Shown in pieces: positions 14,143 through 60,386 of a stretch of DNA of 64,000 nucleotides. The stretch spans positions 83,700-147,699 of the forward strand of contig NBVN01000002.1 of NCBI GenBank assembly GCA_003056265.1, given 5' to 3'. This DNA is from Zestosphaera tikiterensis. Lineage in GTDB: Archaea; Thermoproteota; Thermoprotei_A; Sulfolobales; NBVN01. The position numbers and the translations under genes were made by a program. The notes below the pieces were generated by a model. The model was not told the DNA's origin. It saw nothing but the letters and a program-made list of their open reading frames with translations, and searched no databases. Positions within the stretch are counted from its first letter, which is position 1. The number at the start of each line of letters is the position of its first letter.

Positions 14143-14216
14143 AGATCTATAGATGTAGAGTGCTTTTGCAACTGAAAGCCCCGCCTCTTTAGGGCGGGGA
14201 GGAGGTCAGATCTATA
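14143..14216. repeat. GC hairpin (14179-14199) flanked by 9-nt direct repeats AGATCTATA
   Basis: A 7-bp stem CCCCGCC/GGCGGGG with a 7-nt loop is followed by AGGAGG. AGATCTATA occurs at 14143-14151 and 14208-14216, and AGATCTAT also at 13991-13998. Confidence 0.6.
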
Positions 14217-20045: not shown

Positions 20046-21023
20046 ATGGACGCGAAAGCTTTGAAGGTCTTAAGTAAGATACCTGACTTTCTATGGCTCT
20101 ATACGTTGGTGGCGATGGCGTTAGGCCTTACATACCCAGCAACGTTTAAGCAGTTGGCGCCGGCTATAACGCCTCTCTTAGGTTCGGTGATATTAGCGAT
20201 GGGTTTAACGTTAAGGGGTTCGGACTTTATGAACGTCTTTAAAAACCCGAAGAAGGCGTTAGTTGGTATCCTATCTCAATATACGGTTATGCCGTTGGGA
20301 GGATTTATAGTTGCTGTGGCTTTACTTGGTGCCGTACCTGAGTTTATAGCTGGTCAAGTCCTTACAGGAACTTGCCCGACCGGTGTAGTTTCAAATGTTT
20401 ACACGTACTTAAGTATGGGCAACGTAGCTCTCTCCATAACTCTCTCAGCCATCAATACGGTTATAGCTCCAATACTAACACCCACTTTAACAGGCGTTCT
20501 TGCCGGGAAGTTCGTTCCAGTTGATGTGTGGGCGCTCTTTCTAGATATGGTGCAGGTAACTTTAATACCTGTAACTATCGGCGTAGTCATCAACACAGTC
20601 GCGTCTAAGTATGTAGCGAAGATTAAACCGATACTGCCGGCATATTCAAGCTTTGCCGTAGCTACAATTGTTGCTTACGTAGCAGCGAGCGGGCAGGCGC
20701 GGATACTAACCTTAACGCCATTCATGATCTTGTTGTTGATAGTGGCGACGTTAATACACCTATTCCTAGGTTATGCGTTAGGCTACGCATACGGTAAAGC
20801 TTTTAAGTTAGACTTACCTGATAGGATAACTATCAGTACAGAGACAGCCATGCAGAACTCAGGCCTTGCCACGGTCTTAGCTATAAAGCATTGGGATGCT
20901 TTAGCAGCGTTGCCGGCGGTGACTTACAGCATCGTGCAGAACGTTTTAGGGCCGTTTATATGTCAATTCTTCAGGAAGAGAGTGGTTAAAACAACGCAGC
21001 AAGCTAAAGGAGGGAAGACTTAA
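20046..21023 (+). CDS. bile acid:sodium symporter (BASS) family transporter
   Basis: Polytopic membrane protein. The in-frame ATG at 20046 (MDAKALKVLSK) avoids the overlap with ilvD implied by the 19914 track start. Confidence 0.75.
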   Translation: MDAKALKVLSKIPDFLWLYTLVAMALGLTYPATFKQLAPAITPLLGSVILAMGLTLRGSDFMNVFKNPKKALVGILSQYTVMPLGGFIVAVALLGAVPEFIAGQVLTGTCPTGVVSNVYTYLSMGNVALSITLSAINTVIAPILTPTLTGVLAGKFVPVDVWALFLDMVQVTLIPVTIGVVINTVASKYVAKIKPILPAYSSFAVATIVAYVAASGQARILTLTPFMILLLIVATLIHLFLGYALGYAYGKAFKLDLPDRITISTETAMQNSGLATVLAIKHWDALAALPAVTYSIVQNVLGPFICQFFRKRVVKTTQQAKGGKT

Positions 21024-21247
21024 TTAAAATTCTTTGTAAGCTGCTGATGAATGCAGGAAATACCGCATGTGATTACGCCTTTAATTTTCCAACACTTTCC
21101 CTAACTACTGTGATGTTAGTACCTAAATCATAAACAAGCGCTTTAGAGCAAACATACTTTATCTCAACCTACATAAAGTTAAGAAAATACTCTATCCAGT
21201 AGTGAACACGTTCTTCATAACAGGTATGATTACACCGAATCCTTCAA

Positions 21248-21357
21248 GGATAGGATGATGGGTTGGAGGCCCAACCCGGGGCTAAACGAAGCGGACGTAG
21301 CCCCAAACCAATGAACCTCTAGGGGGCTCTCACTCTTCAGGGCGGGGGAGGAAATCG
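21248..21357 (+). repeat. GC-rich structured element, copy A (partner at 59586-59710)
   Basis: A GC island in an AT-rich intergenic region. It shares the blocks GGATAGG, ATGGGTYGGAGGCCCRRCCCGG, CCRATGAAC and TCAGGRCGGGGAGGA with copy B. The hairpin at 21260-21277 keeps pairing between copies despite sequence differences. Confidence 0.6.
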
Positions 21358-21484
21358 GTAAAAACGTAATCTTTCTGGGAGGACTTGATAAATGCCGGAT
21401 TAATCAAAGGTTTTAAGAGAGGGTTCTATTCATTGAAGTATAAGAAGGTAAGGGTTAAGATTGTTTAAGGGGTGTGAGTAGTTA

Positions 21485-21667
21485 GTGAGGTTGAGTATGG
21501 ATCGTAGGTACGGGTGGATTATAGTAGATCCTAACATATGTCATGGAAAACCTGTGTTTAAAGGGACGCGTGTATTAGTTGCTGATGTACTTGATATGAT
21601 AGCTTCTGGGATGGGTATTGATGAAATTTTAGAGGAATATCCTCAATTAAGTATATGTTTTACGTAG
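21485..21667 (+). CDS. DUF433-domain protein, possibly 3'-truncated
   Basis: IVDPNICHGKPVFKGTRVLVADVLDMIASGMGIDEILEEYPQLS fits the DUF433 pattern. The usual C-terminal helix after YPxLs is missing. Confidence 0.6.
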   Translation: MRLSMDRRYGWIIVDPNICHGKPVFKGTRVLVADVLDMIASGMGIDEILEEYPQLSICFT

Positions 21668-21903
21668 TGAAAACGTAATTCTTACTTACCTATGTTTTTA
21701 GGTGTGGTTAGAGCTGTTGGTTTAATGTTACTGTTCGTCGGGGTTGTAGGTTATTCAGCAATTGCTGTTCTTACTTTATTTATAAGTGGCCGGTGATGTG
21801 TTTACATGGTTTTTAACTAGGTGTAAGTGATTGTCCAAGCACTTCTGCTCCCGTTCCTAGTGAAGCATACAGTACGTACGTTACCATTCTCTACGTTGTC
21901 TGC

Positions 21904-32129: not shown

Positions 32130-32223
32130 CGCGGCCTGCGGCCGCGACTCCGGTTGATCCTGCCGGACCCGACCGCTATCGGGGTGAGGCTAAGCCATGG
32201 GAGTCGAACGCCTCGAACACCGA

Positions 32224-32257
<34 letters not shown>

Positions 32258-32423
32258 CTACCCTCGGGACGGGGACAGTCCCGGGAAACTGGGGCTAATA
32301 CCCGATAGGTGAGGGCGCCTGGAAGGGTCCCTCACCGAAAGGGCTTCACGGGGATGTCCGTGAAGCCGCCCGAGGATGGGGCCACGGCCTATCAGGTAGT
32401 TGGCGGGGTAACGGCCCGCCAAG

Positions 32424-32462
<39 letters not shown>

Positions 32463-32469
32463 ATGGGCC

Positions 32470-32514
<45 letters not shown>

Positions 32515-32612
32515 CTCCGCAATGCGGGAAACCGTGACGGGGTCACCCCGAGTGCCCCGAAGAGGGGCTTTTCCCCGCTGTAAATAGGCGGGGGAATAAG
32601 CGGGGGGCAAGT

Positions 32613-32649
<37 letters not shown>

Positions 32650-32701
32650 ACCAGGCCTCACCCATTAACCTATTTAAACATGGGTTGAGGTCCGGCGCGG
32701 A
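32650..32701 (+). other. 16S mini-intron 1 (52 nt, ORF-less hairpin)
   Basis: It interrupts the conserved CCAGCCCCGCGAG | TGGTCGGGACGG. The insert folds as GGCCTCACCCAT...ATGGGTTGAGGTCC. Boundaries are good to a few nt. Confidence 0.75.
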
Positions 32702-32839
32702 TGGTCGGGACGGTTATTGGGCCTAAAGCGCCCGTAGCCGGCCCGGTAAGTCCTCCCTTAAAACTCGGGGCTCAACCCCGAGCCGGGGAGGATACTGCCG
32801 GGCTAGGGGGCGGGAGAGGCCGAGGGTACTCCCGGGGTA

Positions 32840-33511
32840 ATGGAGGAATCTTGGGCAGGACCGCTTTATAGGGGGAAGTTTCTATTTACAATATTTACAA
32901 TAGGGAGTTATGATGTGTGAAGCATACTTAGCTGGATTAATAGCTGCTGATGGACACATTAATCCTAAGGATTACTCGATAACAATATATACGGGTGATC
33001 TTGGGAGAGCACAGACTATAAAGAATATGCTGGAAAAGCTAACCTGCAATAAAGTTAGTATCAGAAACCATAATGGAGCATATGAAGTCACTGTAACAGA
33101 TAAGAAGCTTACATTAAAGTTTTCCACTAAATACATGATCCCTATTGGTAGGAAGTCTGAACAAATAATATTACCAACAACCAATATTAATAAGAGGGAA
33201 TTATTAGAATTCATAGCTGGATACTTTGATGGTGACGGCTCAATATACAGACGTATACATAGGGCAAGGGATGGTAGAATCAGAGTTTACTACGAGGTAA
33301 AAGTTAAGAGTAAGAGCTTATACTTCCTTAATCAATTGAGAAACCTACTTGCCTCATACAACATAGTTTCTCGTGTGAAAGTATATAAAAACATGATTCC
33401 GTACCTTGTTGTTTCACGTAAAGGCGATGTTATACGGTTCTTTAGAATTTTTAAACCAAGATTTAAAAACCTTTAAAACCCCTAAACCCTGCCTGGGATC
33501 CTCCACCCCAA
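32840..33511 (+). other. 16S intron 2 (672 nt) carrying a LAGLIDADG ORF
   Basis: It interrupts CTCCCGGGGTA | GGGGCGAAATCCGATAATCCCGGGAGGACC. The termini GGAGGAATCTTGGGCAGG and CCTGCCTGGGATCCTCC are complementary, and the interior is AT-rich. Confidence 0.85.
32910..33476 (+). CDS. double-motif LAGLIDADG homing endonuclease (intron-encoded)
   Basis: 188 aa with LAGLIAADG and IAGYFDGDG motifs ~100 residues apart. It lies wholly inside the 16S intron. Confidence 0.88.
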   Translation: MMCEAYLAGLIAADGHINPKDYSITIYTGDLGRAQTIKNMLEKLTCNKVSIRNHNGAYEVTVTDKKLTLKFSTKYMIPIGRKSEQIILPTTNINKRELLEFIAGYFDGDGSIYRRIHRARDGRIRVYYEVKVKSKSLYFLNQLRNLLASYNIVSRVKVYKNMIPYLVVSRKGDVIRFFRIFKPRFKNL

Positions 33512-33596
33512 GGGGCGAAATCCGATAATCCCGGGAGGACCACCAGTGGCGAAGGCGCTCGGCTGGAACGCCCCCGACGGTGAGGGGCGAAAGCCG

Positions 33597-33630
<34 letters not shown>

Positions 33631-33731
33631 CGGCTGTAAACGATGCGGGCTAGCTGTTGGACGGGCTTAGAGCCCGTCCAGTGGCGCAGGGAAGCCGTTA
33701 AGCCCGCCGCCTGGGGAGTACGGCCGCAAGG

Positions 33732-33775
<44 letters not shown>

Positions 33776-33890
33776 GCCTGCGGCTCAATTGGAGTCAACG
33801 CCAGGAATCTTACCGGGGGCGACAGCAGGATGATGGCCAGGCTAACGACCTTGCCGGACACGCTGAGAGGAGGTGCATGGCCGTCGCCAG

Positions 33891-33932
33891 ACACGCCTAT
33901 GGCAAGATCAAGGATGCCATGGCGTGGGCGAA
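33891..33932 (+). other. 16S mini-intron 3 (42 nt)
   Basis: It interrupts GGCCGTCGCCAG | CTCGTGTTGTGAAATGT. The hairpin is CACGCCATGGCA...TGCCATGGCGTG. Confidence 0.75.
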
Positions 33933-34077
33933 CTCGTGTTGTGAAATGTCTGGTTAAGTCCAGCAACGAGCGAGACCCCCACCCCTAGTTGCTACCCGGC
34001 TCTTTTGGGTCGGGGCACACTAGGGGGACTGCCGCCGTTAAAGGCGGAGGAAGGAGGGGGCCACGGCAGGTCAGCAT

Positions 34078-34109
34078 AAGGGTCTGGCTTTAAGGCCGAC
34101 CCTGCTGAA
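34078..34109 (+). other. 16S mini-intron 4 (32 nt)
   Basis: It interrupts GGCAGGTCAGCAT | GCCCCGAAACCCCCGGGCTGCACGCGGGCTACAATGG. The hairpin is AGGGTC...GACCCT. Confidence 0.7.
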
Positions 34110-34266
34110 GCCCCGAAACCCCCGGGCTGCACGCGGGCTACAATGGCGGGGACAGCGGGATCCGACCCCGAAAGGGGGAGGTAATCCCTCAAACCCCGCC
34201 GTAGTTGGGATCGAGGACTGTAACTCGTCCTCGTGAACGAGGAATCCCTAGTAACCGCGCGTCAAC

Positions 34267-34317
<51 letters not shown>

Positions 34318-34384
34318 TCCGAGTGAAGAGGGGGTGAGGCCCACTCTGCCGGGGTTTCCCGGTAGGGTGGGTCGAACCTCCTCT

Positions 34385-34449
<65 letters not shown>

Positions 34450-34548: not shown

Positions 34549-34591
34549 CGCCACGCACAGGTTCCAACGCAACTGTACTAACCAACACCCG
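34549..34591 (+). other. 5' strand of the 23S processing stem (pairs with 39099-39141)
   Basis: CGCCACGCACAGGTTC pairs with GAACCTGTGCGTGGCG, and GTACTAACCAACACCCG pairs with CGGGTGTTGGTTAGTAC. A ~10-nt internal mismatch separates the two helices. Confidence 0.8.
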
Positions 34592-34980
34592 AGGCGTCGG
34601 CGCGAAGCCGTCTGGTGGATGGCTCGGCTCGGGCGCCGATGAAGGGCGCGGCAAGCGGCGATATGCCCGGGGTAGGCGCAAGCAGCCGTCGAACCCGGGA
34701 TTCCCGAATGGGACTTCCTGCTGAGGGTTAACAGCCCTCAGCGCCCCCATTCGGGGGCGGGAACCCCCCGAACGGAAACATCTTAGTAGGGGGAGGAAAA
34801 GAAATCAAATTGAGATCCCCTGAGTAGGGGCGACCGAAAGGGGGACAGCCCAAACCAAATCCCCACGGGATAACCGTGGGGAGATGTGGGGTTATCGGCT
34901 CCACGGCTGGGGCTCGACCCCAGCGAGCCGACCCACCGTAGCCGAAGTGGGCTGGAATGCCCCACCGTAGAGGGTGACAG

Positions 34981-35019
34981 TCTGGGGGCAGGCGTTGATT
35001 GCTCTGCCCTCAGGTCAAC
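34981..35019 (+). other. 23S mini-insert 1 (39 nt), probable intron
   Basis: It interrupts GAGGGTGACAG | TCCCGTAGGC (compare bacterial GUGACAGCCCCGUA). The hairpin is GGGCAG...CTGCCC. Confidence 0.6.
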
Positions 35020-35872
35020 TCCCGTAGGCTAAACGGTGGGGGCTCGTGCCGTGGAGCAGAGTACCACGGCTTGGTTTTGCCGTGGGAAGTCGGGGGTCAC
35101 CGACCTCCAAGGCTAAATACGTCCCGAGACCGATAGCGCACTAAGTACCGTGAGGGAAAGCTGAAAAGTACCCCGGAAGGGGGGTGAAAAGAGCCTGAAA
35201 CCAGGCGGCTAATAACGGTGCGGCTCGAAAGGGGTGAATCCCCCCGAAGGAAAAACGGGTGACCGTTGAGTACGAGGGGGGAGGACCGGGGTCGCACCGT
35301 CCGTCTTGAAACACGGGCCGGGGAGTTCACGGCAGTGGCGAGCTTAAGGGGGTTAACCCCGAAGGCGTAGGGAAACCGACCTGCCCGCAGCGGGAAACCG
35401 TGAGGGGCGGGGTCTGCAAGGGCCTGGAGTCACTGCCGTGAGACCCGAAACCGGGCGATCTAGGCGGGGGTAGGGTGAAGCCGGGGGAAACCCCGGTGGA
35501 GGCCCGAAGGGGTGCTGACGTGCAATTCGCTCCTCTAACCTCCGCCTAGGGGCAAAAGACCAATCTAGCCCGGTGATAGCTGGTTCCCTCCGAAGTGTGT
35601 CTCAGCACAGCCCCGCTGGAGGTGGGTCACGGGGTAGAGCTACGGATTGAGGGTGCCGTGAGCCGGAAGGCTCCGGGCTCTCAGTCCAACTCCGAACCCG
35701 TGGCCACCGTAGAAGGCGGGAGTGGGGCGCCCCGGGGTAAGCCTGGGGGCCGAGAGGGGAACAACCCAGGCCGGGGTTAAGGCCCCAAAGTGCCGGCTAA
35801 GTGCCAAACGTAAAGGGCGTCCGCGGCCTAAGACAGCGGGAAGGTGGGCCTAACAGCAGCCATCCTCTAAAG

Positions 35873-35899
35873 GCAGGGCCTAAAACCCTGCCGGGGAGG
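35873..35899 (+). other. 23S mini-insert 2 (27 nt), probable intron
   Basis: It interrupts CCATCCTCTAAAG | GAGTGCGTAA. The hairpin is GCAGGG-CCTAAAA-CCCTGC. Confidence 0.55.
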
Positions 35900-35909
35900 G
35901 AGTGCGTAA

Positions 35910-36635
35910 GCCACTTATCTCTCCGCCAATTTTAAAATGAATCGTACTGCATAATAATGGGTCGAGTATGTAAAATGACTGAGAGGATATATTTAAAAGC
36001 ATATATTGCTGGTGCTTTAAGAGACGGTTACATTGGAAGGTATGTAGAAAGAAAGAATAGCAAGGAGCATTGGGTGCTGAGAATATATAGCAAGGATGTA
36101 GAATGGCTTAATGAATTGGTTAAAATACTCAAGTACGCATATGGATTTGAGACAAATGTGATAATCCCACATAGAGGTATACCGTATATAGAGAAATACT
36201 CAAAGAAAATAGTGGAGCATATCGCTAAAGAGTTAAACCACCCAATAGGTAAATCAATAAACTGGGACACGCCAATGTTCATTAAAAACACCAACGATAA
36301 GGGTATATGGAGGTATTACATAGCTGGATTCTTCGATGCAGAGGGTGGAGTGGATATAACTAAGAAGCAATTGAAGATATACCAATCATGGAGAGGTGAA
36401 GTATGTCCCCCATTAATGGATATAAAAGATAAGATGCTAACTCTTTTTGGAATAGAGAGTGGGGAAGTATCCAGGTACCCTAATAGAAGATACAACCCAA
36501 GATTCGTTGTAAGAATAAAGAAAAAATACACATATATGTTTTACAAAACTTTCCCATTATTAAACCCATCTAAAATAAACAAGATCAAGCTCATTATTTA
36601 AATCCTTTTAGGGCGGAGGGATGGTGGCCGCAAAA
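35910..36635 (+). other. 23S intron 3 (726 nt) carrying a LAGLIDADG ORF
   Basis: It interrupts GAGTGCGTAA | CAGCTCACCCGCCGAGG. The termini GCCACTTATCTCTCCGCC and GGCGGAGGGATGGTGGC are complementary. Confidence 0.85.
35957..36601 (+). CDS. double-motif LAGLIDADG homing endonuclease (intron-encoded)
   Basis: 214 aa with YIAGALRDG and IAGFFDAEG motifs. Confidence 0.85.
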   Translation: MGRVCKMTERIYLKAYIAGALRDGYIGRYVERKNSKEHWVLRIYSKDVEWLNELVKILKYAYGFETNVIIPHRGIPYIEKYSKKIVEHIAKELNHPIGKSINWDTPMFIKNTNDKGIWRYYIAGFFDAEGGVDITKKQLKIYQSWRGEVCPPLMDIKDKMLTLFGIESGEVSRYPNRRYNPRFVVRIKKKYTYMFYKTFPLLNPSKINKIKLII

Positions 36636-37462
36636 CAGCTCACCCGCCGAGGCCGCGGGCCCCGAAAATACGTCGGGGCTTAAGCCGGCCGCCGAGACCC
36701 CGGGGCACGGCCTCCATGAGGCCGTGATCCGGTAGGAGGGCGTCGGGATGGGGTAGAAGTCGGGCCGTGAGGTCCGATGGACCCGTCCCGAGTGCGGATC
36801 CCGGCGGTAGTAACAGCAAAGTGGGGTGAGAATCCCCACGGCCGGAAGGGCCAGGGTTCCTCAGCAACGGTCGTCAGCTGAGGGTTAGCCGGTCCTAAGG
36901 CAGGCCGTAACTCGGTCCTGCCGAAAGGGAAACGGGTTAATATTCCCGTGCCGCGGAGGTAGGTGCGGCAACGCAAGCCCGAACCCTGACGCGTCGAGGT
37001 AGGCCGACCGAGGCAGCCGCCTCGGCTAACTACCCGAAGGCCGGGGAGTGCCGTAACGGCGAGAACCGGCTGAAGGGAGGAATGGCCCCCGTTAGGGGGT
37101 TCGGCCGAGCCTCGGCGCCCTTGAAAAGGGGTTCGGGAACGAACCTCCGCGACCGTACCGAGAACCGACACAGGTGCCCCTGGGTGAGGAGCCCAAGGCT
37201 TGTGGGGGCTAACCCAGGCTAGGGAACTCGGCAAATTAGCCCCGTAACTTCGGGATAAGGGGTGCCTGCGGTTCTGCGGAAAACCCGTGGAACCGCGGGT
37301 CGCAGTGACAAGGGGGTCCTGACTGTTTAATAAAAACATAGCTCCCCGCTAGTCCGAAAGGATTAGTACGGGGGGTGAATCCTGGCCACTGGCGGTACGT
37401 GAAGCCGGGGTACAACCCGGTGAAGCGCCGCTGAAGGCCGGGGGTAACTCTGACCCTCTTAA

Positions 37463-38046
37463 CGGGGGTCTCCCACCCGCTAGCAACACGGTAGTTTATA
37501 CTTATTACATGGGTGGAAAAGATGCAACTGGGACTGGTGAGGTAATGAGGCCAGAAATAATAGGATATGTTGTGGGCTTCATTGATGCTGAAGGGAGTTT
37601 CTCAGTGAGCGTGAAGTTACAGAAAGACGTTGTATATGGAGTGAGGCTTGATCCCGTCTTCAGCATAACTCAGCAAGGGAGGGAGCCTCTTGAAGTTATC
37701 GCTGATGTACTTAATGCGGGAAGAATAATTCGAAAGCCTGGTCAAAGACACCTGTGGTTGCTTATAGTAGATAGAATGAGTGAGCTGACTCAGAGCTTAA
37801 TACCGTTCTTGGACAAATACAGGGATCTCCTTCTAGCTAAGAGAGAAATATATGAGCTGTTTAGGGAGATAGTCATTGGCTTGCATAGTGGAATGCATAA
37901 AAGACCTGCGGGTCTTAAGAAGCTTGTGACTTTATCTTACAGCCTCTCTAGATTGAACTCGAAGGCCCATAGAAAGAGGGCCCTTAAACAAATTTTAGAA
38001 ATAATCGATTCCCGTGTTGCCGAGTGGGGGGAGCCCCCGGGAGATA
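37463..38046 (+). other. 23S intron 4 (584 nt) carrying a single-motif LAGLIDADG ORF
   Basis: It interrupts GGTAACTCTGACCCTCTTAA | GGTAGCCAAATGCCTTGCCGGGTAAG. Confidence 0.85.
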
Positions 38047-38051
38047 GGTAG
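37509..38051 (+). CDS. single-motif LAGLIDADG homing endonuclease (intron-encoded)
   Basis: 180 aa with one VVGFIDAEG motif near the N-terminus. The stop codon TAG (38049-38051) lies in the downstream exon sequence GGTAGCC. Confidence 0.85.
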   Translation: MGGKDATGTGEVMRPEIIGYVVGFIDAEGSFSVSVKLQKDVVYGVRLDPVFSITQQGREPLEVIADVLNAGRIIRKPGQRHLWLLIVDRMSELTQSLIPFLDKYRDLLLAKREIYELFREIVIGLHSGMHKRPAGLKKLVTLSYSLSRLNSKAHRKRALKQILEIIDSRVAEWGEPPGDR

Positions 38052-38072
38052 CCAAATGCCTTGCCGGGTAAG

Positions 38073-38117
38073 GCAGGCACCACGTATTGCATAATATGTG
38101 GTGTCTGCCCTCGACAG
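38073..38117 (+). other. 23S mini-intron 5 (45 nt)
   Basis: It interrupts GCCTTGCCGGGTAAG | TTCCGGCGCGCATGAATGG. The hairpin is GCAGGCACCAC...GTGGTGTCTGC. The boundary is ambiguous by 1 nt. Confidence 0.75.
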
Positions 38118-38713
38118 TTCCGGCGCGCATGAATGGATCAACGAGGGCCCCACTGTCCCAGCCTGGGACCCCGTGAAGCCCACGGGGCTGGTGCACAGGC
38201 CAGCATCCCCCCGTAGGGAGAGAAGACCTCGTGGAGCTTTACCGCAGCCTGGCGTTGGTTCTCGGGTTGCGGTGCGTAGCGTAGGCGGGAGGCTGTGAAC
38301 CCACTCTTCCGGGGGTGGGTGAGCCGTAAGTGAAACACCGCCTACCGCGATCTGAGGGCCTAACCTCGGGTTCGCCCGAGGGACAGCGTCAGGTGGGCGG
38401 TTCGGCTGGGGCGGCACGCCTGCGAAAAGATAACACAGGCGCCCAAAGGTCAGCTCAGGCGGGTCAGAACTCCGCCGTAGAGTGCAAGGGCAAAAGCTGG
38501 CCTTACCAGACCCTTGAACGTAAGGGGTCTGGTCGGGAAACCGCGGCCTAGCGAACGCTCGTGCCCCCTTCGGTGGGGGCCGGGCATGACAGAAAAGTTA
38601 CCCCGAGGATAACAGGGTCGTCGCGGGCGAGAGTCCCCATCGACCCCGCGGTTTGCTACATCGATGTCGGCTCTTCCCATCCTGGGAGTGCAGCAGCTCC
38701 CAAGGGTGGGGCT

Positions 38714-38763
38714 AAGGGGGTAAGGCGCTTAAGAAGGTAAGCGTTCTTCCCCCTCCCTAAGCC
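38714..38763 (+). other. 23S mini-insert 6 (about 48-50 nt), probable intron
   Basis: It interrupts CCAAGGGTGGGGCT | CGCCCATTAAAGGGGAGCGTGAGCTGG, a hairpin loop in other 23S rRNAs. The insert is an imperfect hairpin, AGGGGGTAAGGCGCTTA...TAAGCGTTCTTCCCCCT. Boundaries are uncertain. Confidence 0.55.
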
Positions 38764-39196
38764 CGCCCATTAAAGGGGAGCGTGAGCTGGGTTTAGAGCG
38801 TCGTGAGACAGCTCGGACTCTACCCACGGGGGGTGCGGGCCGCCTGAGGGGAAGGCATCCCAAGTACGAAAGGAACGGGATGTCGCGGCCTCTGGTCTAC
38901 CGGCTGTCCGGCAGGGCATGCCGGGCAGCTACGCCGTGCGAGCTAACCGCTGAAAGCATCTAAGCGGGAAGCTCGCCCCGAAAAGAGGCGGCCGTTCGCC
39001 GGAGGTTCCCTCCGGCGACGAGGGCACCCGTAGAAGACGGGTTTGATGGGGCGGGGGTGTATGCCCGCCGCTCCCAATAGCCCGAGGCTGACGCTTGCCG
39101 GGTGTTGGTTAGTACGGTGTTGATAGAACCTGTGCGTGGCGTGAGGTATTTCTTAATCATTTATTTTGAGGTATTCACCTCATCGTTTTTAAACGT

Positions 39197-44232: not shown

Positions 44233-45465
44233 ATGAAGGCGTTTATCCGCTCTAGAGTTGGGCGGATGCCTGAGGGAGTATATCATAGGGCTTTAAAAGC
44301 TGAGGCTGAGGTTGTAGATGGGGATATTGGGGATCTACTCTATGACTTAGCCATTCATAGATACGTTCTTCAGAGGGTTGTGGATGCGTTATGGGATTTG
44401 GGGGAGATACCTAAGAAAGATCAAGCACATCAAATGTTCTACGAAATGCTTAGAGTATATGGTTTTAGAGCACATGTAGCTAGAAACATATACAACACAG
44501 CAATAGCTTTTTAGTTAAATCCACTAAAAACAACGGAGGTTCAAAACCTACCGTTAAAAAGCTTAGTGCTAGACTAGACCATCAAGACGCTAAAGTAAAT
44601 TTAAGCAACAGAACAGTTAGAATAATCCTTAGAGATAAATGGTATACACTCAGAATTAAGCACAGGAATGGATATATTGAAAGATTCGAAGGCTTGAAGT
44701 GGAAGGAGGTTCACGTTAAATACCGTAGTGGTAAGCTCTACGTTAGCATAGTGTTTAAGGTAAGATACACACCATACATTCCTAAAGGTGTTGTAGCTCT
44801 AGACCTGAATTTGAGGTGTGTCGTATCGTATGATGGCTCTGATGTTAGGAGGTATAGAACTAAATTTATAGATGCTCTCAGTAAAAAAGCTAGAGCTGAA
44901 GAAATTCGGAAGAAGTATCCTAAGAGGTGGAGATACAATAGGAAGATTTTGAAGAGGGTTAGGAGCCTCCATAGGAGGTCTAGAAATATTGTTGTGGATT
45001 GGTGTGGGAAGTACGCTAAAGAAATTACGTGGAAGGCTAAGAAATATGGCTACGCAATAGCTTTAGAAGATTTAAAGGAACTTAGAAAATCATTCAATAA
45101 TAAAAATGATAGAGTTGTTTGGAAGCTCACGATGTTCGCATATAGGAGGCTTCAAGAATCAATAATGAATAAAGCTATTGAGTATAACGTCCCCATAGTG
45201 TTTGTGAATCCAAAGAAAACATCTTCAACATGTCCAAGATGTAAATCAAAAGTTAGATATAATTGGAAGATTCGGGATATGTAACAAATGCGGGTTTAAA
45301 GCCGATAGAGATGTAATAGGAGCTATAAACATTTGGCTGAAGGTTTTAAAAGCGTGTGCGGGGGTGTTTGGGTCGCCCCTAAGAGCCTCCGCAGTGAAGG
45401 ATGAAACCAGACAGAGCGGAGGAACAAAACATGAGGGGATGAAGAAAGTAATCAGAAGTAACTAA
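44233..45465 (+). pseudogene. tnpB: TnpB (IS605 OrfB-type RNA-guided nuclease) with two frameshifts
   Basis: Three frame segments are 44233-44514, 44514-45284 and ~45253-45465. RuvC-like residues are present in VVALDLN, AIALEDL and KADRDVIGAINI, and the zinc finger is CPRC...CNKC. The first shift lies in a T5 run at ~44507-44511. Confidence 0.8.
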
Positions 45466-45500
45466 AAGCGATTGAGAGTATCATTCAGACTCGAACCCTC

Positions 45501-59250: not shown

Positions 59251-59585
59251 TTAAGACACCATGTATACCTGCTGTATGTTATTAATATAAAGTATTTTAT
59301 GTCGTTATGTAAATTAACTCTTCTTAGACGAGAGAGTGACCTTACCAAAGTCGTGAACTTAGGAGTTACTGTAGTGCTTTACAACCGAGAGCCTCGTTAT
59401 TTGTGGTGGGGATGGGAAGGTTTTATATAATTGCTTTTAGTTTACTCTTGATTGCAGTGTTTAATATGGTGGTGTAGTATAGGTTGTGTTTAATTAATTG
59501 CTTGGTGTTTACCTCCCACATGAATGCTTGAGACCTTCGGAGGTCGATGATTGGTGAAGGTATTCCATAACCTCGAGACCCTATG

Positions 59586-59710
59586 GGATAGGGATAATGG
59601 GTCGGAGGCCCGGCCCGGAGGTGGGTGAGGTGGGTGGAGAGAGATGCGTCTTCAAGCCGATGAACTGCCTGAGGAGGAATCCCCACCCCTCAGGACGGGG
59701 AGGAGATTAG
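59586..59710 (+). repeat. GC-rich structured element, copy B (partner at 21248-21357)
   Basis: A GC island between cysteine synthase and the PHP gene. It shares sequence blocks with copy A, has a hairpin at 59599-59616, and overlaps the last ~19 codons of the PHP ORF. Confidence 0.6.
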
Positions 59711-60386
59711 TCTTAAAAGCAAGTTGCTTTTCTGAAATGCCGTAGAGCCGAGCCTTAAAACTCCAGCTAAACATTTTATGGAGAGCGTTAAACTTGTAAG
59801 CCGGTCTCATAAGCGTTCGTCCTTTCTTTAAAGCGTCAAGCACTTCTTCCTTTTTTAAATCATTTACGTAAATTAAGTTATATGAACATCCTATTTCAGA
59901 GAGGGTATGGGCGTCGGAGTTTGATAGTAGGGTTTTAGACTTATTACGTAACATTAAATAACTAAGCAAGTTGGTTATAGGGTCTGAGCGTGCGTTAAAT
60001 ACTTCAAATCCATCCCATAAATCATAAATTCTCGATTTACCGCCGACGCCGAGTCTTTTTAAATCGAATGGGTGTGCCGGTATTATAACGCAGGAATTTT
60101 CTTTAGCTATATCACGTAAGAGGTAAGGATTTTCTGAAACGGTAATAGGTTCTTCACAGAATATTAGAACATCGCCCCATACCGTCCTGACTTCATTTCC
60201 CAATAACACAACTATATCATGTTCCTCTGCATATCTAGACGCTATTACAGATCCTAAAAAGCTGTTGTGATCGGTTATGGATATTACATTAAGTTTTAAT
60301 TTACGGGCGTATTTCACTATATCTTTAGGTGAGGCTTCACCGTCGCTAACGTAGCTGTGTATGTGTAAATCAGCTCGAGCAAGCAT
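59652..60386 (-). CDS. PHP-domain metal-dependent phosphoesterase
   Basis: 244 aa with the N-terminal ADLHIHSYVSDG motif. The low-complexity C-terminal tail (GGDSSSGSSSA) is read from the GC-rich element and may not be genuine. Confidence 0.75.
   Translation of the reverse strand: MLARADLHIHSYVSDGEASPKDIVKYARKLKLNVISITDHNSFLGSVIASRYAEEHDIVVLLGNEVRTVWGDVLIFCEEPITVSENPYLLRDIAKENSCVIIPAHPFDLKRLGVGGKSRIYDLWDGFEVFNARSDPITNLLSYLMLRNKSKTLLSNSDAHTLSEIGCSYNLIYVNDLKKEEVLDALKKGRTLMRPAYKFNALHKMFSWSFKARLYGISEKQLAFKTNLLPVLRGGDSSSGSSSA

Follow-up and report, generated by a model that had tools for sequence, protein, structure and literature searches.

What are the two GC-rich structured elements found in a 64 kb stretch of the archaeon Zestosphaera tikiterensis (contig NBVN01000002.1; hereafter the window, meaning all 64,000 nucleotides that were analysed), and do they serve the cell that carries them? 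The window is archaeal DNA of ~43% G+C and contains one tRNA and an rRNA operon with long insertions. One of the proteins encoded beside copy B (described below) shows 100% identity to a protein of Zestosphaera tikiterensis, which belongs to the Desulfurococcales. An earlier note on it had described two diverged copies of one structured element, termed here copies A and B, and left their class unknown. The coordinates and sequence blocks quoted there are present, and the pairwise alignment of A and B gives ~75% column identity across ~150 nt. The extents had to be widened: copy A really covers 21226-21358, the conserved RNA-like part of copy B is 59564-59710, and the inserted element to which that part belongs is 59383-59710. 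Judged by their sequence, both copies are very probably non-autonomous remains of insertion sequences (IS) of the IS200/IS605 family (IS1341/IS605 type). Their GC-rich structure would, with equally high confidence, be the right-end region of the transposon, which in intact elements is the scaffold of the TnpB guide RNA (ωRNA). The TnpB guide RNA is also called reRNA and was earlier named sotRNA or HgcC RNA.

Relatives of the two copies

The first indication of a class came from a permissive scan against Rfam. On the + strand, which is the relevant strand of both copies, two families gave weak matches: sot0042 (RF02656; A 25.6 bits, E 9e-5; B 13.1 bits) and HgcC (RF00062; A 16.1 bits; B 20.4 bits, E 0.015). 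The gathering scores are 88 bits for sot0042 and 50 bits for HgcC, and at gathering score the window contains rRNA and one tRNA only. The Rfam check proposed in the earlier note was thus negative in the strict sense and gave a sub-threshold link of both copies to the same two families. These families were linked to the 3' or right end of IS1341-type tnpB genes and to palindrome-associated transposable elements or PATEs (PMC4615843).

A single pattern spanning helix P2 and the 3' hairpin (both described below) was scanned over 185,579 species genomes and the JGI metagenomes. Further homologues, for which the earlier note had proposed a search, were found in public genomes and metagenomes; three matches in GC-rich bacteria (L002, L004, L006) were chance pattern matches and were discarded. 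At three loci, in an Archaeoglobi metagenome-assembled genome or MAG (L003 = L009), L010 and L017, the element follows and overlaps an open reading frame (ORF) of 414-445 amino acids bearing the Pfam domains OrfB_IS605 and Cas12f1-like_TNB, which identifies the product as TnpB. The last ~40 tnpB codons (...NADLVGAYNILITPSPERGRGNGPEARPG...) form the 5' two-thirds of the element, which terminates at ...GGGCGGGGAGGAGGTCAG; beyond this point the sequences diverge. The class is therefore no longer unknown, since intact tnpB genes carry relatives of A and B at their 3' end. In L009 a Y1 transposase gene (tnpA) lies upstream as well. The left ends of the intact IS in L010 and L017 read TTAC, then AAC(C/T)GAAAGCCTCGCC...GGCGGGG...TTATAAGG, followed by a TATA box. 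Other relatives are gene-less forms of ~230 nt, of the type of PATEs or miniature inverted-repeat transposable elements (MITEs), with a left end after TTAC and a right end: L005, L007 (= L013), L008 (= L014 = L016) and L012. Intact elements and PATEs have the same left-end start (TTAC, then AAC(T/C)GAAAGCC, then a hairpin), and TTAC precedes the left end in L005, L007, L008, L010, L012 and L017.

The divergence of A and B from these relatives was measured with a covariance model, R1, built from nine external sequences (three tnpB-linked, four PATE and two other gene-less copies) and excluding A and B. Run on the window with filters off, R1 recovered both copies: B is matched over 59564-59712 (75.1 bits, E 3.5e-22) and A, in a full-length match, over 21226-21360 (72.8 bits, E 1.9e-21). 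The next full-length match reached 11.6 bits. Because the external members score 124-166 bits, A and B, at about half the score of the tnpB-linked copies, appear as divergent members. The canonical relatives themselves remain below gathering (27-51 bits with sot0042, 24-40 bits with HgcC), and the whole scaffold clade is on these scores a distant relative of both Rfam families.

The association with tnpB was checked independently by selecting loci through TnpB protein homology alone. All three loci chosen in this way (from a Desulfurococcaceae MAG, a Fervidicoccaceae MAG and Hyperthermophilic Archaeal Virus 2) have tnpA and tnpB with a scaffold at the tnpB 3' end, scoring 150-155 bits with R1. 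The TnpB clade comprises at least 981 proteins at E <= 1e-40 in a protein search. The virus (GU722197; L029/L031) carries a complete tnpA+tnpB element of IS605 type with its scaffold at L029:2638-2782 (155 bits); R1 also matches L029:519-675 on the - strand, weakly (27.8 bits).

These relatives bear on two further explanations. In the first, the similarity would be a mere decaying coding remnant of the tnpB C-terminus with no selected structure. The region does encode the last ~40 TnpB residues (...ITPSPERGRGNGPEARPGATGEVAPNLPAL...) in intact elements, and copy A in the tnpB-equivalent frame reads DRMMGWRPNPG..VAPNQ*. A duplicated coding fragment had been named in the earlier note as something that would overturn its claim, and the similarity is indeed in part a remnant of the tnpB 3' end. 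However, the tnpB frame is interrupted by stops in both A and B, and translation of all + frames around A, B and a short third copy, C, gave no ORF or clear TnpB remnant. The substitutions in the helices are compensatory, the element runs on past the stop of tnpB as far as the right end, and its conservation is just as good in gene-less PATE copies. A coding remnant is thus a very improbable explanation.

In the second, A and B would belong to a new cellular non-coding RNA family unrelated to mobile elements, or be C/D-box, H/ACA, tRNA-like or riboswitch RNAs. They are GC islands in AT-rich spacers, contain UGAUGA-like motifs and have no Rfam match at gathering. This is contradicted by the tnpB-linked relatives and the R1 scores, and the loci are not conserved in relatives. 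The only C/D-box match in the permissive scan was sR47, on the opposite strand (E 6.2), and ARAGORN finds no tRNA at the A and B sites. Both programs agree with the failure, already recorded in the earlier note, to fit either copy to tRNA, C/D, H/ACA, 5S, SRP, RNase P or a riboswitch; the UGAUGA-like motifs were rejected as C/D boxes on layout, length and the Rfam results. An origin as cellular RNA can be considered next to impossible.

Insertion of copy B into the PHP gene

If the copies derive from transposons, an insertion should be recognizable at their loci. This is the case for copy B, whose features are the following:

59383..59710, + strand: copy B, a gene-less IS200/IS605 derivative of PATE/MITE type, 328 nt, directly 3' of TTAC (59379-59382)
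59383..59430, + strand: left end, with AACCGAGAGCC, a degenerate hairpin (CCTCGTTA-TTTG-TGGTGGGG), ATGGGAAGG and a TATA-like box
59421-59430, + strand: TATA-like box TTTTATATAA, described as strong and retained in the left end
59530..59554, + strand: second left-end-like module, hairpin GAGACC-UUCG-GAGGUC then GATGATTGG, preceded by TTAC at 59509-59512
59564..59710, + strand: ωRNA-type scaffold and right end, matched by R1
around 59571-59593, + strand: helix P1
59599-59605 and 59610-59616, + strand: helix P2, GGGUCGG, loop AGGC, CCGGCCC
59617-59623 and 59647-59653, + strand: helix P3, GGAGGUG with CGUCUUC
59654-59665, + strand: junction AAGCCGAUGAAC
59681-59700, + strand: terminal hairpin CCCCACCC-CUCA-GGACGGGG
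59701-59710, + strand: right-end terminus AGGAGATTAG
59711..59730, + strand: putative guide segment of 20 nt, TCTTAAAAGCAAGTTGCTTT, antisense to PHP codons; its position is inferred, with the boundary set by the empty-site alignment

Copy B lies between the PALP and PHP genes and contains no credible ORF. In a sister species the PHP gene is 80% identical and the gene order is the same, and the PHP-PALP spacer measures 93 nt versus 401 nt in the window. When 59383-59710 is deleted in silico, the window aligns across the junction (TTTAC followed by TCTTAAAAG) with the uninterrupted sister sequence (TTTAC followed by TTCGGGAAG; locus L018). Copy B is therefore a clean insertion 3' of TTAC without target duplication, as expected for IS200/IS605 elements. 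No R1 element was found in the sister and relative loci L018-L022, and the R1 match to B was recovered in an independent assembly of the same organism (L001).

The insertion falls within the ancestral PHP reading frame. This explains the overlap of copy B with the 3' end of the PHP ORF that had been noticed before: the ~19 last residues of this ORF (59652-60386, - strand) are encoded by the element (59652-59711). PHP homologues cover just 88-91% of the window ORF, and the sister has a different tail of similar length. The insertion of B has thus replaced the C-terminus of a host PHP-domain protein.

Between its left end (59383-59430) and its right end finishing at 59710, copy B encloses no protein gene, as PATEs and MITEs do. 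Together with TTAC, the left end (59379-59420) is 79% identical to the intact IS left end of L010 (BLAST, E 6e-5); its hairpin is degenerate and pairs solely through G-T. The inner module has the format of PATE left ends, i.e. a hairpin and then ATGATGGGG. The HgcC model alignment begins at 59530, and 59545-59618 is 77% identical to L015 (BLAST). Copy B may be nested or composite, because this second left-end-like module, with a TTAC of its own, resembles L015 and the 5' part of HgcC. L015 itself (L015:2253-2480, - strand) is a scaffold copy without tnpB or a canonical left end, directly after a gene stop. It is preceded by a TATA-like TATTTTATAAATAA and a hairpin CTTAGGCTC-TTT-GAGCCTAAG, then GCGATGATGG, a layout equal to that of the copy B inner module and the HgcC 5' part; L015 may represent a free-standing gene of ωRNA type.

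Copy A, a solo right end

Copy A consists of the right-end region:

21226..21358, + strand: copy A, solo right end and ωRNA-type scaffold, without tnpB or a recognisable left end
21239-21243 and 21247-21251, + strand: inner part of helix P1, AUCCU/AGGAU, an extra 5' hairpin; A itself begins at 21226, ~20 nt before the start given earlier
21260-21266 and 21271-21277, + strand: helix P2, GGGUUGG, loop AGGC, CCAACCC
21278-21284 and 21298-21304, + strand: helix P3, GGGGCUA with UAGCCCC
21305-21317, + strand: junction AAACCAAUGAACC
21327-21347, + strand: terminal hairpin CUCUCACUC-UUCA-GGGCGGGG
21349-21358, + strand: right-end terminus AGGAAATCGG
21359..21378, + strand: putative guide segment of 20 nt, TAAAAACGTAATCTTTCTGG, its position inferred from TnpB systems (PMC10055086)

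It is 67-70% identical to intact IS elements over 21229-21359 (BLAST). The homology starts at ~21226, and BLAST against the external elements found no left end, so that A does not have the two ends around a gene-less interior that define a PATE or MITE. Upstream of A lies the gene of an SBF transporter, ending at 21023. Synteny with relatives stops at its stop codon, and R1 finds nothing in the relatives' loci. TTAC-adjacent insertion is shown for B; A has neither a left end nor a syntenic relative. Neither the A nor the B locus is conserved in the closest available relatives.

The A region (21024-21900) is non-syntenic with relatives and includes a small DUF433 (antitoxin-like) ORF at 21485-21667 (+ strand). 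At the corresponding position the sister species carries an NTP_transf_2/HEPN pair. The stretch downstream of the SBF transporter gene appears to be a hotspot of variation.

A covarying fold

The earlier note had recognized a selected RNA helix from the hairpin GGGTTGG-AGGC-CCAACCC of A (21260-21277), which becomes GGGTCGG-AGGC-CCGGCCC in B (59599-59616) through changes on both strands that keep the pairing. These changes are confirmed. In the relatives this helix, P2, is GGGCCGG/CCGGCCC, relative to which A has two double changes from C-G to U-A and B has one G-U.

Single-sequence folding of A and B was uninformative (z-scores -1.9 and -0.2). With 11 sequences, RNAalifold recovered P1-P3: P1 is an outer CCCC/GGGG stem with an internal loop and a variable inner hairpin, P2 has the consensus GGGCCGG-AGGC-CCGGCCC, and P3 occurs as GGGAUU/AAUCCC, GGGGCUA/UAGCCCC or GGAGGUG/CGUCUUC. 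Across P1-P3 and the terminal hairpin, 94% of the cells of these 11 sequences are paired. Two-sided changes affect 7 of the 30 pairs and 17 cells, versus 5.1 +/- 2.0 in shuffles; none of 500 shuffles reached the observed covariation score, and registers slid by 1-3 columns are 29-63% paired. A long-range pairing of CCUCC in the junction with GGAGG in the 3' tail is unsupported by L011 and L012 and is not claimed.

Could this structure matter as DNA only, i.e. as hairpins that TnpA recognises on the single-stranded ends, and play no part as RNA? The terminal hairpin does form such a single-stranded DNA structure in those IS200/IS605 elements that have been characterised. The terminal hairpin with AGGAGGTCAG and the left-end hairpin are near-identical imperfect palindromes, as expected for the ends of this family (PMC10055086). 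Viral contigs with the exact right-end terminus mostly bear the terminal hairpin without the remaining scaffold. On the other hand, P1-P3 lie 60-130 nt inside the right end, overlap the tnpB frame and match the position of known ωRNA scaffolds. Their covariation tolerates G-U (P2 of B; P3 GGAGGUG/CGUCUUC), which fits RNA rather than DNA. Since G-U pairs are tolerated and the helices sit inside the tnpB frame, these observations argue for pairing in P1-P3 at the RNA level, and a role restricted to DNA is improbable.

The claim of a selected RNA helix thus stands for the fold, and selection need not have acted at the A and B loci. Most likely, the helices were shaped by selection in the parent elements; selection at these two loci as cellular small-RNA genes is not required.

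Decay and the possibility of domestication

Both copies show signs of decay. The terminus AGGAGGUCAG, otherwise near-invariant, has three changes in both A and B, and the outer part of P1 has mismatches in both. The terminal hairpin has one or two mismatches in A and B; an A-C mismatch is also found in the intact L017. Mobility is unlikely because of these changed termini, the mismatches in the terminal hairpin and outer P1, and the left-end hairpin of B that pairs solely via G-T. Copies A and B are most likely immobile fossils.

The way in which such remains could still act follows from the biology of the family. TnpA excises and inserts a single-stranded element beside the transposon-adjacent motif (PMC10055086). 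TnpB, with an ωRNA encoded in the right end and a guide corresponding to the flank past it, cuts the empty donor joint and so restores the element (PMC10055086). PATEs often encode ωRNAs needing TnpB in trans (Meers et al., PMC10055086). If copy B is transcribed, this could start at the TATA box of its left end and continue across the scaffold to the flank antisense to PHP; A could be transcribed by read-through or from another promoter. Each transcribed copy would be an orphan ωRNA, its guide being the 16-20 nt of flanking DNA just past the right end. By analogy, such an RNA would be able to act solely with a compatible TnpB supplied in trans.

Domestication would follow this route: A and/or B could be orphan guide-RNA genes, transcribed, selected at their locus and loaded on a trans-encoded TnpB or a nuclease-dead TnpB-like protein directed at a fixed target. 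Several observations speak in its favor. Inner P1, P2 and P3 are fully paired in A and B despite many substitutions, double compensatory changes included; B retains a strong TATA box in its left end; and the derived junction motif CCRAUGAAC is common to both copies. The trans-acting PATE ωRNA is an accepted idea (PMC10055086). RNA-guided regulators derived from TnpB are reported (PMC10705468), and overexpression of a PATE-derived RNA is reported to have improved the growth of Halobacterium (PMC4615843). Against it, neither locus was kept in the closest relatives, both copies have about half the model score of tnpB-linked copies with an altered AGGAGGUCAG terminus, and the compensatory changes may equally date from active parent elements. 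The window contains no second target, i.e. TTAC with a match to the putative guides of A or B; the near matches found are at chance level and without TTAC. Domestication is consequently unlikely, and the chance that A and B still have a function is similarly small.

A more specific form of this proposal is less probable again: domesticated orphan ωRNA genes of a CCRAUGAAC sub-lineage, that of B transcribed from the left-end TATA, would be used in trans by a TnpB or a nuclease-dead TnpB-like protein encoded elsewhere in the genome, with fixed guides directed at the 3' end of PHP (B) and at the spacer that precedes the DUF433 gene (A). The sub-lineage itself is indicated by the alignment: A and B derive from a common one, because both have CCRAUGAAC where all 12 relatives have CCUCCC(A/C)GC. 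This junction motif might be a K-turn-like site for an archaeal RNA-binding protein.

Several points weigh against the reading of A and B as remains of IS200/IS605 elements. No tnpB adjoins A, B or C; with three TnpB proteins as tblastn queries, no tnpB of this subfamily was found in the 64 kb window, which makes A and B orphan copies. A cognate TnpB or TnpA elsewhere in the genome is an unproven candidate, the search having covered this window. No Zestosphaera TnpB is among the best 120 of the 981 protein-search matches. The only tnpB remnant in the window is a frameshifted gene of a different subfamily at ~44233-45470 (+ strand). Both copies also fall below the gathering scores of sot0042 and HgcC, and they have CCRAUGAAC at the place where 12 of 12 relatives have the other motif; a scan of viral contigs for CCRATGAA found no tnpB-linked parent with the variant.

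Comparison with known systems

The kind of element described here is already known as ωRNA/reRNA, sotRNA, HgcC or PATE. The closest parallel is the TnpB ωRNA or reRNA (OMEGA systems, e.g. ISDra2 and ISGst). In the relatives the element likewise overlaps the tnpB 3' end and runs to the right end, with a multi-helix covarying scaffold after which the flank would be the guide; insertion occurs 3' of a 4-nt motif (TTAC) without duplication, and gene-less derivatives carry the scaffold. In contrast, no tnpB adjoins A or B, a left end is missing from A, and CCRAUGAAC is absent from the tnpB-linked copies found. This is an archaeal clade, with members in Desulfurococcales, Archaeoglobi and an archaeal virus, and its ωRNA function is predicted. 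To our knowledge, its sequences are not alignable to the bacterial ωRNAs characterised so far.

HgcC (RF00062), a high-GC non-coding RNA of Methanocaldococcus and Pyrococcus, likewise forms a GC island within the AT-rich genome of a hyperthermophile. GAUGA comes after its 5' hairpin, its 3' hairpin is CCCCGCCC-UUNA-GGGCGGGG and its tail is GAGGAGGUCAG; copy C agrees exactly with this 3' consensus. It differs in the central part, and A and B score under its 50-bit gathering. The sot0042 RNA (RF02656) of Halobacterium salinarum has the same helix order, with a CCGA...AGG internal loop in P1, then P2, P3, an AAACC junction and a UUCA terminal hairpin. It belongs to a host of another phylum, A and B lack its overlap with tnpB, and their scores are far under 88. 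IS1341-type tnpB genes give rise to the sotRNAs as sense transcripts at their 3' end (Gomes-Filho et al., PMC4615843), and a right-end-like hairpin with a UUCA tetraloop is common to sotRNAs, HgcC and the PATE-derived RNA (PMC4615843). Like non-autonomous PATE/MITE derivatives (compare REPINs), copy B (328 nt) has a left and a right end, contains no ORF and was inserted cleanly next to TTAC; it is longer than the ~230-nt forms, contains a second left-end-like hairpin and has degenerate end hairpins.

Copy C and other features of the window

A search with an 11-mer from the 3' block revealed copy C:

14170-14209, + strand: copy C, a 40-nt fusion of left-end start, hairpin and right-end terminus, AACTGAAAGCC-CCGCCTC-TTTA-GGGCGGGG-AGGAGGTCAG, preceded by TTGC at 14166-14169

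Its segment 14176-14209 (CCCCGCCTCTTTAGGGCGGGGAGGAGGTCAG) equals the 3' consensus of the HgcC model. Over 14166-14203 copy C matches the left ends of external elements and over 14176-14209 their right ends, with 85-94% identity (BLAST), and R1 detects the terminal hairpin alone (14179-14211, 24.3 bits). Copy C looks like the product of a deletion between near-identical left-end and right-end hairpins. The sequence AGATCTATA at 14143-14151 is repeated across the right-end junction of C at 14208-14216; in L011, too, ATCTAT flanks the right end.

In the frameshifted tnpB mentioned above, the ORFs 44233-44514 and 44694-45284 match Cas12f1-like_TNB at 5e-8, and the RuvC-III motif ADRDVIGAINI is legible in another frame beyond 45284. 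Its GC-rich tail (45350-45470) may be its own ωRNA region; R1 gave no match there.

The 16S (32147-34447) and 23S (34591-39097) rRNA genes are much longer than the Rfam models, with a 676-nt insertion in the 16S gene and 4507 versus 2987 nt for the 23S gene. ORFs lie within them at 32910-33476, 35957-36601 and 37509-38051, and the insertions are probably archaeal rRNA introns with homing endonucleases.

Significance

What is new is modest and comprises an unannotated archaeal scaffold clade with its TTAC motif, the three orphan derivatives found in Zestosphaera, and one documented case of insertion into the 3' end of a gene. Such elements go unannotated as neither Rfam family reaches its gathering score on the clade, and R1 could annotate them. 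Most likely, the elements are inert as far as the biology of this organism is concerned. The GC-rich "mystery RNAs" of an AT-rich hyperthermophile genome are explained as transposon right ends carrying TnpB guide-RNA scaffolds, and the HgcC and sotRNA families are tied to a large TnpB clade of hot-spring archaea. Genome-editing work may also find interest in a thermophilic TnpB clade whose TTAC motif and scaffold are defined.

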